A stretch of DNA of 29,552 nt from Holosporales bacterium (GTDB lineage: Bacteria; Pseudomonadota; Alphaproteobacteria; RUG11792). Shown in pieces: positions 4,229-29,552 of this stretch. The translations under genes were made by a program, and so were the position numbers. The stretch spans positions 1-29,552 of the forward strand of contig JAITIT010000035.1 in NCBI GenBank assembly GCA_031279295.1. Reading direction: 5' to 3'. Within the stretch, counting starts at the first letter, position 1; each line of letters starts with the position of its first letter. The notes under the pieces are model-generated. The model saw only the letters and a program-made list of their open reading frames with translations, had not been told where the DNA came from and ran no database searches.

Positions 4229-4244
4229 TTAACCAAAAATTAAC
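4229..4244 (+). promoter_or_regulatory. CtrA-type binding site TTAA-CCAAAAA-TTAAC
   Basis: Exact match to the TTAA-N7-TTAAC consensus. Intergenic, 60 nt upstream of the GTG at 4305. Confidence 0.65.
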
Positions 4245-24737: not shown

Positions 24738-25018
24738 ACAACACCTCGACCACGTAAATTACCAATTAGTGAAATGCTAGCAAAAAACAAAAAAAAACAC
24801 AACTCTTCCTGTACAATAGGAATTGACAAAAGGCGGCCAAAAGAATGAAAAGCCATGTCTAGAGGGTAACGGATTCTGAGAAGATTGTACACCACAGGGT
24901 GTAAGCTGTATATGATCTTTTAACCAAGGGGAGCTAGGTTATATGGGCACTGGCGCAGTAGCGGAAAGTAGTTGACGCAAGGCCTAACGAGTTAAAAGAC
25001 TATGGGCGTAAATTTTTT

Positions 25019-25056
25019 TTGACAGTACTGTTACGAGTATCTTAACCTGAGATTAG
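25019..25056 (+). promoter_or_regulatory. Putative promoter: TTGACA -35 followed by phased CtrA-like half-sites TTAC-N7-TTAA-N7-TTAG
   Basis: TTGACA at 25019-25024, TTAC 25031, TTAAC 25042, TTAG 25053. Upstream of the 25181 operon. Confidence 0.45.
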
Positions 25057-25180
25057 AGGCGGCCAAATGGGTTGCCCCTGATCTACGTAGAATACCAAAA
25101 CCTGGCCGCGGAGGCCATTCGTTCTCCCCGGCATTATTTATCAACAATCAACACCATAACTTTTGAAAGGAGTTAATCTC

Positions 25181-26674
25181 ATGAAAATACAATTCATATA
25201 TGGCACATACGGGAGCACCGATGAGTGTACCATGAACAACGCACTAAATCTGCACATCATAGAACAAGAGGGGAAAATCCCAAAGGCTACCATTGAGTAT
25301 GACATACAGGATTACGAATACCTCAGACAATTCGACACATGCAGGATAATTCAGGATGGAACCGCATTCTTCAATGGGATCATCACGGCACTTGTAGTGA
25401 ATACGGACACTGTGTCTGTGGAGCTTTCTGCCATCGGAGACGGTTCTCCTCAAAGCAGCAAACAATTATCCGAAGATGACGATGTAATTGACAGATTCAA
25501 AATCGAGAACCCAGACTTATTCGTGTCAATCTTGTCCGGTGAAACTTTAAGAACAGGGGATGTACGCAAATCCAACATGCTAATCCAGCAGTCGGATCGC
25601 ATCCCCTCCCTCGATGGCAAGATCGTAGCAGACTCTCTGAAAATCAGGCGCTTGAAAGACATGCCGATAGGAGAAATGAATCTAGAGATTCTGTGCTCGT
25701 GGATTTCAAAGAGAAACGGTAGCGTTACACTCTCGTCCCAAATCGGTAACAGATTCCGACTCGGGAAAGTCAACACACTAACACCTAAGAAGCTGACCGA
25801 CTCTTGGCCTAGATTCGGAGATCACTTAGCCAGCAACGCAAGGCCCACAAGGTATTTTGTCTCTACATCGAGGCTTGCTAAGAACGATGAATTGCCATTA
25901 CCACCGGTTATAATTGCAGACGATATCCCAAGGCTGACTCTCAAACGCTACTCATTCGATAGCAGGCTTGGGGTCGCATGGGACTACGATCAGTTCATGA
26001 CAGAAATCCTGACGATGACTGTGCTAAACCAGCACGCCCCGAGGGCTAATAAGAAAGCTATGCGGATCAACCTCAAGAACGTGCAGGAGTATGTAGATAA
26101 TGACGATTGCTACAGCTTCTTCCGTTCGAAAAACGGACGTATGATCCTAGACGAAATTCAAAAATCGATCGGAGCCTACATTGCCCTCTCAATGCGAAAC
26201 ATCGAGATCTCATGTGACATTATCGATACCGATAACATGATCAATCTCGATTGCACGAACTGGGTATCCATCGGTGGCATCACTTGCAAGATCACCGGAA
26301 TCGAACGCCAGATTTCTCCGTTTGAGCACCATATCAAGATAATGGCAAGGGGCTTCGAAGATACAATAGCCTCAGATAACCTTATATCTCCAGCACGCCT
26401 TGATGACGCCGAGGTTATTAGCCCACGTATCGAGGATGTAATTCGTGACATAGTAGTCCAGAATGAGAGCGATACCCAATATGAGAAGCTCCTGAGCTAC
26501 ATCGCGGAACAGAGACGCCTCAACAGAATCACAAGCAGAAACTACAGGCGTCTCATCTCAAACTTCCTAAATGAGAATCAGACCAAAATCCAGATTGCCT
26601 TGAAACCACTCAAGACACAGCACTGCGAAAAAAGGACTATCGCACTAGAACCAGTGCATATGTTTCTGCAGTAA
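25181..26674 (+). CDS. Hypothetical protein (497 aa), possibly phage/GTA tail- or baseplate-related
   Basis: Long ORF with SD AAGGAG 8 nt before ATG 25181. No signal peptide or TM and no recognisable enzyme motif. The phage link is inferred only from context. Confidence 0.8.
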   Translation: MKIQFIYGTYGSTDECTMNNALNLHIIEQEGKIPKATIEYDIQDYEYLRQFDTCRIIQDGTAFFNGIITALVVNTDTVSVELSAIGDGSPQSSKQLSEDDDVIDRFKIENPDLFVSILSGETLRTGDVRKSNMLIQQSDRIPSLDGKIVADSLKIRRLKDMPIGEMNLEILCSWISKRNGSVTLSSQIGNRFRLGKVNTLTPKKLTDSWPRFGDHLASNARPTRYFVSTSRLAKNDELPLPPVIIADDIPRLTLKRYSFDSRLGVAWDYDQFMTEILTMTVLNQHAPRANKKAMRINLKNVQEYVDNDDCYSFFRSKNGRMILDEIQKSIGAYIALSMRNIEISCDIIDTDNMINLDCTNWVSIGGITCKITGIERQISPFEHHIKIMARGFEDTIASDNLISPARLDDAEVISPRIEDVIRDIVVQNESDTQYEKLLSYIAEQRRLNRITSRNYRRLISNFLNENQTKIQIALKPLKTQHCEKRTIALEPVHMFLQ

Positions 26675-26697
26675 GTGACTAAGGAGGATACCAAACA

Positions 26698-27510
26698 ATG
26701 ATAAGAACAAATAGACCGAGGACAAGACTCCTTGGAAAGCCATTCGTAGGTGGCTTCACAGACATCGATAGGGATGGGACAAACATAACGATAGGAGATA
26801 GCGAACTACTCGATGACATCTTCCGTGATGACTTCCCGGAATACATTAAGCTTCTGTGTTCAATGTCTGCGTACGCTGAGTTTGCAAACGTCGTAGTTTC
26901 GGCGAGGTATAAAGAGAAGAGCAATAGTAGTGTGAAAACGTTGTCATACCATCTCTATGACGGATCATCAATCAACATGACCGGATTCGTATCGAAGCTC
27001 TCAATAGCGGCTCTCGACATACTCCCAGAGGTTGGAATGCTTGATTCAAGGTGGCAGAGATATATCTCCGAAAATAACATTATATATACCAAGCACTTCC
27101 AGACCCAAGCATCATCCACATGCGTAGAAAACTTCGTGGATCATGACACACAGGAAACCGGGATAATCCATACGAAATCCAGAGCTCACAGCTTTGCGGG
27201 AAGTTATTTCAGTGGCATCAAACTTGCGGACATACAGCCATACCTATTTTATGTAGGTACCGGCTACCAAGCCAAATCATACATAAGCATCATATCAGCT
27301 AGTGACGCATTGAGATTGAGAAAAGTAACCTTAGCCCCCGGAGTTTCAGGGGATTCACTCTCCACTCTAGAAGACGATATCTGCAATGGTAACATCCGGC
27401 TGTCCATTCCCGATTGCCCTATCGCTTACAAATCAATAGCCGCAACAAAGGAAACCCTGACGTCCGACATCTTCCAGATTACATTCAGGAGAGGGCCTAG
27501 AGATGGATAG
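26698..27510 (+). CDS. Hypothetical protein (270 aa)
   Basis: SD AAGGAGG at 26681-26687. Its stop overlaps the next gene's start. No recognised motif. Confidence 0.8.
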   Translation: MIRTNRPRTRLLGKPFVGGFTDIDRDGTNITIGDSELLDDIFRDDFPEYIKLLCSMSAYAEFANVVVSARYKEKSNSSVKTLSYHLYDGSSINMTGFVSKLSIAALDILPEVGMLDSRWQRYISENNIIYTKHFQTQASSTCVENFVDHDTQETGIIHTKSRAHSFAGSYFSGIKLADIQPYLFYVGTGYQAKSYISIISASDALRLRKVTLAPGVSGDSLSTLEDDICNGNIRLSIPDCPIAYKSIAATKETLTSDIFQITFRRGPRDG

Positions 27511-27919
27511 AGACATAGAAATCATGGCGAAAACAATCTACGGGGAAGCACGTGGAGAATACCGTCTCCCAAACGGAGGAACCAACTCACTCATCGCAAT
27601 CGGTAACGTCGTCATGAACCGAGCAAAGAGATCAGGGGAGAGCATCGCAATTGAGTGCCTAAAACCATACCAATTCTCATGCTGGAATAAAAATGACCCG
27701 AATAGAGCAGTCATCAACAACATACCTCTCTCTGATACAGTTTACGAAAAATGCTTTATCACAGCGGGCCAACTACTCTGTGGAGACCTTCAAGATGACA
27801 TTACCAACGGAGCGACACACTATTACAGCGCCCGCATGCGCTCCCCACCGTACTGGACCGTTAACAAACAACCAGTCGCAATGATTGGAAATCATATATT
27901 CTTCAACCTCCTATATTGA
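27503..27919 (+). CDS. Cell wall hydrolase, SleB / Hydrolase_2 family (phage-endolysin-like, no signal peptide)
   Basis: TIYGEARGE (catalytic Glu), VVMNR, YQFSCWN, TNGATHYY, IGNHIFF. Confidence 0.92.
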   Translation: MDRDIEIMAKTIYGEARGEYRLPNGGTNSLIAIGNVVMNRAKRSGESIAIECLKPYQFSCWNKNDPNRAVINNIPLSDTVYEKCFITAGQLLCGDLQDDITNGATHYYSARMRSPPYWTVNKQPVAMIGNHIFFNLLY

Positions 27920-27991
27920 ACTTGCATTACAATCAACATGTGTGTTATTCTAAATAACATGAGGAAGGAACAGCAACCTACAATACAGCAA

Positions 27992-29347
27992 ATGCAAAAA
28001 TTGAGCCGCACCATGGTAAAGGTGCTAGTTGGGATCATGGTACTCCACAGCCAAGCAGACGCGCACGAAGCAGTACGAGATGAATCAGTCAGACTGGCAG
28101 TCAAGAGCTGGCTGGGCCAAGAAGTCGAGCTAACCGCAAAGACAAGCATGCATGCAACAAGCGGTCGAACATACGCCGCGAAAACCCCTAATGGGCAGCA
28201 ATATATAGTACTTGCAAGCGAAGGAATAGTCACAGGCGGCGAGGAGAATCAAGGCCCAAACCCTTTAACACCACATCAGAAAGAACAGCCAATACCAGGG
28301 GCTCTGAATCTGGTACTACCAGGCAAGAAGAGCTACTGGATTATAGACCAGGACGGTAGTCCAACCCCGTGCACATACGAAGAGGCCAAAGGACACCAAA
28401 TGAACCAGCTAGCGCAACAGGAGAGACAGGTAGTAACGATAGAAGTCCAGAGGAGAGCGCCAGGGAAGGATCTACGCAGGATACTGCTGAGCTACCTACA
28501 AGGACGAATCAGCCAGCGCAGAATGCTGCAAATAGCATACCAGCTAGGACGGAGCATAGCACAACTGCACAATCTTGGCTTGATCGAAGGAACAACAGAA
28601 ACAGAAACTGCACACAATGACCTACACGGAGGAAACGTAGTCGTAGGCGAAGTGGAAGGGCAGCCAACCATCACTTTCATCGACATAGACCAGCGGGGGC
28701 ACGCAGATGTCAGGTCCGACCTGTGTGCCATCGCAGCTAACATCGCAGGAGCAATAGCGGAAGCTGGGAAGAAGCATGACTCCCAACAGGTAGCGACACT
28801 GTATGCAGCGATGTGCAAGCTTCACGAAGGGTACAACGAGGAACATAACGGAGAAGAGATACGCTTCGTATCGACGCAAGACCTATTCTGGAGGCTAACA
28901 ACACACGGATGCACAAGCACCATAATGATGCAGGGAACGATGTTTCCAATTGATAAAGACAGAAACAAAAGCCATCCCTACACTAGGCAGGAAGCCTTTG
29001 AGGCGCTGGGTGGCGTAACTACCAAGTGGTACGGAGAACAGGAATACGATATAATAGATCTAATGTACCCATACTGCAGTTTGGCCGAATACAGGAAACT
29101 CTACGGGGATGGCAAGCCAGTCGGGCATACAGTAGCAACTAGCGTAATGGGCGAGATACTCCGAGAGTCAGTCATGAACCATGGATACCCCCTCGACATA
29201 GACACATGGATAGAGGTCGCCAGCGCAGTACAAGAGGCAGCAACCACGATTGGGGAGGGAGTCGGCGAGAGCTACGGTCTGGACTGCAGGCCAGCTATAG
29301 CAAAATTCGAGGAACGGCTAAGAGAGATAATGGGCCGGGACAGCTGA
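27992..29347 (+). CDS. Secreted protein-kinase-like protein (atypical)
   Basis: Signal-like MQKLSRTMVKVLVGIMVLHSQADA-HE; RAPGKDL, IAYQLGRSIAQLHNLG, HNDLHGGN catalytic loop, FIDID, and a later D..SDL. Start uncertain (27938, 27959, 27992 or 28013). Confidence 0.7.
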   Translation: MQKLSRTMVKVLVGIMVLHSQADAHEAVRDESVRLAVKSWLGQEVELTAKTSMHATSGRTYAAKTPNGQQYIVLASEGIVTGGEENQGPNPLTPHQKEQPIPGALNLVLPGKKSYWIIDQDGSPTPCTYEEAKGHQMNQLAQQERQVVTIEVQRRAPGKDLRRILLSYLQGRISQRRMLQIAYQLGRSIAQLHNLGLIEGTTETETAHNDLHGGNVVVGEVEGQPTITFIDIDQRGHADVRSDLCAIAANIAGAIAEAGKKHDSQQVATLYAAMCKLHEGYNEEHNGEEIRFVSTQDLFWRLTTHGCTSTIMMQGTMFPIDKDRNKSHPYTRQEAFEALGGVTTKWYGEQEYDIIDLMYPYCSLAEYRKLYGDGKPVGHTVATSVMGEILRESVMNHGYPLDIDTWIEVASAVQEAATTIGEGVGESYGLDCRPAIAKFEERLREIMGRDS

Positions 29348-29517
29348 ACGAGGTAGGGAGCACCACCGAAGCAGATCTCACGCCGTAGTTGAGTAGCTTC
29401 GAAAGTTCCAGCAGTGAATGTAGCCCAAGGATCAGTTACCTTCCTCCCCCCTCATCACCTTACCAAAACACCATTTCCCTTTGGAACGAAACCCTAACCA
29501 CAATTTACGTAACGTAT

Positions 29518-29552
29518 TGTCAAGGCCTTCAGAGCGATAGCGTGCCTTGACA
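29518..29552. repeat. 9-bp inverted repeat TGTCAAGGC-N17-GCCTTGACA containing back-to-back TTGACA elements
   Basis: Read directly. The right arm ends at the window edge and may extend beyond it. Confidence 0.55.

Follow-up and report, generated by a model that had tools for sequence, protein, structure and literature searches.

A putative distal tail-tip module of a gene transfer agent-like particle in a reduced Holosporales genome

The window analyzed in this study is a 29,552-nt contig (JAITIT010000035.1, here C71) from a metagenome-assembled genome (MAG) of a Holosporales bacterium (GCA_031279295.1; 0.73 Mb, 85% complete). It carries three consecutive genes encoding a 497-aa protein (hub), a 270-aa partner protein (p270) and a 138-aa peptidoglycan hydrolase (Table 1). 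These three genes probably represent the distal tail-tip module of a gene transfer agent (GTA)-like particle, the genes of which are scattered around the reduced genome. Sequence comparisons showed that hub, p270 and hydrolase have their orthologues in the genes that end the GTA head-neck clusters of many other small-genome Alphaproteobacteria. The three genes are co-inherited with those for capsid, portal and terminase, and all were co-lost in one lineage. The initial annotation, made from the letters of the window, had left the choice between a domesticated fragment of a phage tail, GTA or tailocin and a new device for wall remodelling or exit; the homologues at the cluster ends and the co-loss in genome G017 spoke for the GTA option.

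The closest homologues of the hub, like those of p270, were hypothetical proteins of Holosporales MAGs. No match to the hub was obtained in Pfam (Phage_GPD, PF05954, included), PHROGs or NCBIfam, and its profile found nothing among the PDB sequences. The AlphaFold2 model of the hub, built with 29 homologues as input, had a mean pLDDT of 86.9. A Foldseek search of this model against the PDB gave 48 matches at E ≤ 1e-3 (best E 1.6e-8), headed by spikes of extracellular contractile injection systems, diffocin, Mu gp44 and T4 gp27; among the matches listed all were tail hubs or spikes. Alignment by VIA-align with 1k28_D, 1wru, 6j0m_A, 6rbk_C and 6u5h_A (T4 gp27, Mu gp44, PVC, AFP and pyocin hubs) gave Z values of 14–15.5 and rmsd of 3.7–4.8 over 240–275 aligned residues, located in residues 1–400 of the model. 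The model thus assigns residues 1–400 of the 497-aa protein a four-domain gp27-type hub fold. A tail hub had been suggested before as a weak inference from the N-terminus, and the fold match (Foldseek E ~1e-8, VIA Z ~15) bore out this suggestion. The hub shared its fold over residues 1–400 with the hubs gp27, Mu gp44 and P2 gpD and with Afp8, Pvc8 and VgrG, but differed from them in its low identity (5–13%), the lack of a Pfam match, a model without a long beta-helix needle and a conserved C-terminus of 100 aa. This family-specific extension (~100 aa, residues 400–497) lies outside the hub match, yet it contains some of the best conserved columns of the family.

VgrG was also among the fold matches of the hub (Z 11–13 in VIA-align), and this genome encodes a type VI secretion system (T6SS) with TssC and VgrG. 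The gene order vgrG-adaptor-effector is a classic T6SS layout, which the module would resemble if it were an accessory spike set in which an adaptor and a peptidoglycan-hydrolase effector accompany a VgrG-like hub. However, such a T6SS set is very improbable. A canonical VgrG recognizable by Pfam (682-aa ORF) is encoded elsewhere, on contig C39, and therefore the 497-aa protein, which did not match PF05954, is not the T6SS spike. Two genomes, G017 and G004, were positive for TssC and had no hub, and in 14 of the 16 loci of other families described below the hub was situated within a capsid-portal cluster and not a T6SS cluster. No immunity-like gene follows the hydrolase. The T6SS reading was rejected on the basis of the VgrG located elsewhere and of the T6SS-positive, hub-negative genomes. 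The only sheath found in this genome was the T6SS sheath.

The p270 protein was modelled by AlphaFold2 with a pLDDT of 81, its N-terminal 42 aa being disordered and followed by a beta-rich globular domain. The N-terminal 42 aa carry a conserved PFVNGFTDIE-like motif, and the mean column identity was 56% among 31 homologues. There was no match to p270 in Pfam, PHROGs or NCBIfam; its model had no match at E ≤ 1e-3 in Foldseek searches of the PDB and BFVD and no usable match in the ESM Atlas. A PAS domain was considered and dismissed, since the best wide VIA match (Z 5.1 over 84 residues) was treated as a common arrangement. A hidden Markov model (HMM) built from the ~290-aa proteins following the hub in 12 distant loci (family '287') matched p270 alone in this genome (E 7e-6). 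By this profile match, p270 is assigned to the '287' family, which follows the hub in the GTA clusters of other families.

The third protein matched Hydrolase_2 of Pfam (PF07486; E 1.4e-12; 48.6 bits, above the gathering score of 27) and PHROG 938, annotated as endolysin. It begins with MDRDIEIMAKTIYGEARGE and has no hydrophobic leader or signal peptide, which agrees with the single-domain SleB-type hydrolase lacking an export signal that had been read from the sequence at the outset. Residues T11-Y13-G14-E15-A16-R17-G18 (TxYGEARG) and 18 other positions were invariant among 17 orthologues from several families. Glu15 is presumably the catalytic residue, going by the known structures of SleB. 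The hydrolase alone retrieved nothing useful from the PDB sequences. A spore cortex-lytic SleB, which in full length comprises a signal peptide and an N-terminal peptidoglycan-binding domain, was rejected, the score to the TIGR02869 equivalog being 33 bits against a cut-off of 236.5 and the protein having no leader and one domain of 138 aa. In tail-associated lysins such as the T4 gp5 lysozyme and the lysin domains of siphophage Tal, the peptidoglycan hydrolase is encoded with the hub. Unlike these, the window enzyme is a separate SleB/CwlJ protein and not a domain of hub or spike, and it would presumably be attached to the particle.

A search with the hub profile against 1.84 billion representatives gave 300 relatives; the distant ones were 550–650 aa long and some had a CBM5/12 insertion. 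With a profile of the distant members, the hub was detected in 46 of the 401 alphaproteobacterial genomes sampled, nearly all of 0.6–2.1 Mb and distributed over ~25 GTDB families. The surrounding 20 kb were fetched for 16 of these matches, one per GTDB family. In 14 of the 16 loci, the hub displayed the same strand as, and was located at most 10 kb from, the portal, S78 protease or capsid gene. The recurrent order was (terminase)-portal-protease-capsid-gp6 connector-head completion-tail completion-'187'-hub-'287'-small CBM5/12 protein-Hydrolase_2. For example, the G029/G360 cluster was arranged as S78 protease-capsid-g6-g7-g8-'187'-[EamA, opposite strand]-hub-'287'-CBM5/12-SleB, and the G029 hub aligned with the hub family of the window in hhalign (probability 98.7%, E 3e-16). 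Orthologues of the hydrolase close the GTA clusters of loci L029, L030, L037, L039, L041 and L042.

Some features of these distant clusters were not shared by the window. CBM5/12 domains were inserted in distant hubs (L011, L012) and were also encoded as a separate small protein after '287' (L029), while the hub of the window had no CBM5/12 match and no gene is located between p270 and hydrolase. In the majority of the distant families examined, an EamA transporter gene in opposite orientation separated '187' from the hub (L029, L011 and equivalents in L030, L031, L037 and L039–L042; three copies were Pfam-checked); given this wide presence, the insertion is old and stable. In the very small, complete single-contig genome G239 (0.63 Mb; locus L033), portal, protease, gp6, '187' and hub were arranged in a row. 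The gene of ~180 aa after SleB in the distant clusters has a strongly conserved copy on contig C25 of the Holosporales genome (local HMM, E 3e-69) and was therefore read as a housekeeping gene outside the module.

The head genes of the Holosporales genome are chromosomal and were found on other contigs than the module. They included an HK97-type capsid (E 2.4e-62), a large terminase (TerL; PF03237, E 4e-19) and a gp6-type adaptor on contig C52, while none of the capsid, portal and terminase genes sought by genome-wide searches was on the window contig. Thus, the earlier statement that the module is isolated from phage genes holds for the window and fails for the genome. The solitary capsid gene is flanked by lptB and murC and encodes 321 aa, compared with 403 aa in G029. 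No match to PF04860, PF09931, PF09343, PF13550, PF03354 or PF04586 was present in this genome, and local HMMs of g7, g8, protease and '187' from the distant clusters detected nothing in the assembly.

Within the family, linkage of the module to head genes was repeatedly observed. In G003, a relative with 81% identity, hub, p270, SleB, a p469-like gene and the portal follow each other on one strand. Since the portal follows p469 in G003 and the window contig stops 205 nt after p469 (positions 29348–29552), the portal of the window genome is probably located just past the contig end. The order hub-p270-hydrolase recurred in at least eight other genera of the family and is therefore not a chance arrangement. 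A single 10-kb locus of G007 encodes TerL and capsid together with hub, a p270-like protein and SleB, and the portal was located 3–4 kb from the hub in G003, G022 and G045. In G007, the terminase and the hub module are separated by two Pfam-negative ORFs of 658 and 779 aa, neither of which has a homologue in the window genome. In genus g7 the portal was 3.4 kb from tssC in G009 (C19) and G055 (C1), which may be chance in small genomes.

Table 1. Location, selection and distribution of the module and of other genes named in the text. Positions without prefix are those of the window. The dN/dS values (Nei-Gojobori, against G003) are approximate because dS of the module (0.86–1.45) is near saturation. 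Distribution refers to 41 genomes of the GTDB order, belonging to one family.
Feature	Location	Strand	dN/dS	Genomes of order	Remark
Hub gene (497 aa)	25181–26674	+	0.11	37/41	ATG start; TTG at 25163 would yield 503 aa
p270 gene (270 aa)	26698–27510	+	0.08		partner protein, assigned to '287' family
Hydrolase gene (138 aa)	27503–27919	+	0.06		Hydrolase_2, SleB/CwlJ-type
Upstream intergenic region (443 nt)	24738–25180	+			presumed promoter region of module
Three neighbouring control genes			0.05–0.11		
Capsid gene	C57:19731–20696 (L010:5732–6697)			36/41	HK97-type
Large terminase gene	C59:2461–3795			35/41	
Portal gene				35/41	
TssC gene				37/41	
p469 gene (469 aa)	27938–29347	+	0.32		
G007 ORF, 658 aa	L014:3724–5700				Pfam-negative
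G007 ORF, 779 aa	L014:5835–8174				Pfam-negative
EamA gene	L029:8118–9038				opposite strand
EamA gene	L011:3877–4800				opposite strand
CBM5/12 in hub	L011:2002–3771				inserted
CBM5/12 in hub	L012:3795–5684				inserted
Small CBM5/12 protein gene	L029:12366–12974				after '287'

The hub was detected in nearly the same number of genomes of the order as the head genes and TssC (Table 1). In G017 (96% complete), hub, p270, Hydrolase_2, capsid, portal and TerL were all lacking while TssC was kept; because one lineage is concerned, this co-loss counts as a single event. The three module genes are under strong purifying selection, like the neighbouring housekeeping genes. A decaying prophage remnant without present function, which the small number and isolation of these phage-type genes in a reduced genome might suggest, is extremely improbable: the ORFs are intact in 37 of the 41 genomes, dN/dS is 0.06–0.11, and the position beside TrpRS and the FYDLN protein is kept in G020, a member of another genus. 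In addition, neither of two hubs had a tblastn match among the 50,697 phage records of INPHARED, and a phage origin was rejected on this ground. The prophage remnant and T6SS readings were both already disfavoured.

The heads of such GTAs have been described before. In the Holosporaceae, GTA head and portal genes are conserved while tail parts were "missing or undetected" (George et al., 2022; PMC9254644). Why very small endosymbiont genomes retain GTA heads without tails has been a puzzle: a capsid that lacks a delivery end is unable to transfer DNA, and therefore repurposing was raised as a possibility (George et al., 2022; PMC9254644). Beside this work, none of the papers searched joined these subjects; a review of the Holosporales covers the T6SS and not GTA tails (PMC11909080). 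The system studied here resembles the reduced GTAs of Holosporaceae and Rickettsiales endosymbionts (PMC9254644) in lineage, head genes, scattering of genes in small genomes and purifying selection. It differs from that account in that the downstream genes are now identified as hub, conserved partner, CBM5/12 protein and SleB-type hydrolase. A hub, partner and lysin co-inherited with the heads constitute a plausible delivery end.

Following the repurposing proposal (George et al., 2022; PMC9254644), the module itself might have been exapted from the capsid as a stand-alone envelope, wall or host-interaction device that is no longer on a head. In this genome the module genes are indeed apart from the head genes, no tube, tape measure or protease was found, and in G009 (genus g7) hub and p270 are on separate contigs. 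However, the module was lost together with all head genes in G017, and its linkage to portal or capsid was repeatedly kept in the family (G003, G007, G022 and G045). The hub fold has no known function other than in tail or tube. Exaptation is therefore decidedly unlikely.

The favoured reading, a tail tip on a GTA-like particle, suggests how the three proteins could act. A hub trimer would close the end of a very short tail, and this tail would consist of the neck proteins and, where present, the small '187' protein, a putative distal tail (Dit)-like component. The p270 protein might use its conserved N-terminal peptide to attach to the hub. The SleB-type enzyme would be carried at the tip and would cleave the recipient peptidoglycan locally during delivery, thereby taking the role of g14 in the GTA of Rhodobacter capsulatus (RcGTA). 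The RcGTA structure reportedly indicates that g14, an NlpC/P60 peptidase, cuts the recipient peptidoglycan during delivery.

Within the same GTA system, the enzyme could also be a release endolysin, which would lyse the producer from within instead of being carried as an entry lysin on the particle. Its match to PHROGs families annotated as endolysin and its lack of a signal peptide, usual in holin-dependent endolysins, would fit this role, and phage lysis genes often follow tail genes. However, no holin-like gene adjoins the hydrolase here or in the distant clusters, where the next conserved gene (~180 aa) was read as housekeeping. The overlap of the hydrolase start with the p270 stop suggests translation coupled to that of a structural gene. 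Moreover, in G009 the hydrolase was not detected while hub and p270 were retained. A release role thus appears rather unlikely.

Comparison with RcGTA (g12 distal tail, g13 hub, g14 NlpC/P60 and g15 megatron) revealed both likenesses and differences. In both systems the module closes a head-neck cluster at its 3' end; this cluster contains the HK97-type capsid, PF04860 portal, S78 protease and gp6, head-completion and tail-completion proteins. A small enzyme that degrades the cell wall is encoded after the hub, and the genes are chromosomal, vertically inherited and under purifying selection. However, the new hub is a single gp27-type polypeptide of 500–650 aa, the wall enzyme is of the Hydrolase_2 (SleB) type and not NlpC/P60, two family-specific proteins are added (p270/'287' and the CBM5/12 protein), and no tape measure or tube was recognized. 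Of 101 genomes sampled for canonical g13 (PF09931), 14 encoded it; all of these were larger, and none carried the new hub family. Because no profile similarity to g13 was found, the tip is a different module and not a recognizable g12–g15 set. PF13550, which we take to be the marker of g15, was among the families without a match in the window genome. The module is unclustered in this genome, but clustered in G007, in G029/G360 and in the 14 of 16 loci of other families.

Several results weigh against a GTA tail tip. Neither particle, packaging nor transfer has been observed for this system, and ~850 cells of endosymbionts from related lineages showed no particles (George et al., 2022; PMC9254644). 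The portal (PF04860) was not found in the 85% complete assembly, although it is present in 35 of the 41 genomes of the order. G004 (95% complete) has head genes, p270 and SleB, while its hub was not detected. All 41 genomes of the order lack the S78 protease; capsid maturation may be protease-free here. Orthology to RcGTA g13 (PF09931 + PF09356) was rejected, since hhalign against eight canonical g13 proteins gave probabilities of 0.1–0.2%. The assignment of '187' as Dit comes only from language-model scores of 0.85–0.89 (Phage_min_tail, DUF2460), and its identity with canonical g12 was not significant in hhalign and was rejected. No tail tube or tape measure was recognized among the cluster ORFs scanned with Pfam, the Pfam tail-tube family not being searched. 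Within the order, 14 of the 41 genomes have shorter '187'-like ORFs, which in genus g9 are situated 1–2 kb from the module; none was found in the window assembly. A search of the PDB sequences with the '187' profile gave nothing useful.

We tentatively suggest that these clusters encode a new GTA morphotype, in which a Dit-like ring and a gp27-type hub with a SleB-type lysin directly cap a head and neck. Such a particle would have no tube or tape measure and, in this order, no maturation protease; among obligate symbionts from more than 20 families it may be functional and serve to deliver DNA or other cargo. If true, a stubby functional particle would explain the selection on "tailless" GTAs. 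The hub family defined here and its orphan-fold partner are missed by the current Pfam, PHROGs and GTA-detection models. Since these models miss the new hub family, GTA surveys based on g12–g15 would under-call tails in ~11% of the sampled alphaproteobacterial genomes (46/401). The findings also name "hypothetical" genes to be sought, such as AIL13299.1 of Ca. Paracaedimonas acanthamoebae; WP_130153668.1 of Ca. Finniella inopinata is another named carrier of the hub family annotated as hypothetical.

The arrangement of the module in the window is compact. A gap of 23 nt separates hub and p270, the hydrolase start overlaps the p270 stop by 8 nt, and the ORFs are intact. Each gene is preceded at ~8–10 nt before its ATG by a Shine-Dalgarno (SD) sequence, namely AAGGAG (25168–25173) for the hub, AAGGAGG for p270 and AGGAGAGG for the hydrolase. 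The ORFs, spacing and SD sites thus bore out the initial annotation of three tightly linked genes with strong SD sequences. Its host-type regulatory sites could not be reproduced: neither a CtrA-type box (TTAA-N7-TTAA) nor another defined regulatory site was found in the 443-nt upstream region, the three boxes of the window being located at 4229, 9220 and 19599. Upstream of the module, a sigma-70 consensus and promoter/terminator scan performed no better than shuffled sequences. A PF11367 match in the window (E 0.015) fell within a 33-aa frame containing a stop and was regarded as noise. The remaining window genes are housekeeping genes, including those for TrpRS, the FYDLN protein, CarD, TyrRS, pyruvate kinase and RRF.

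The gene following the hydrolase, p469, has no detected SD site and showed a weak kinase-like (APH/EcKL) signal. Its orthologue in G003, located between hydrolase and portal, was only ~40% identical, with a dN/dS of ~0.32. The G+C content and AT skew of the gene were above those of its surroundings. p469 is a fast-evolving, effector-like neighbour outside the conserved module.

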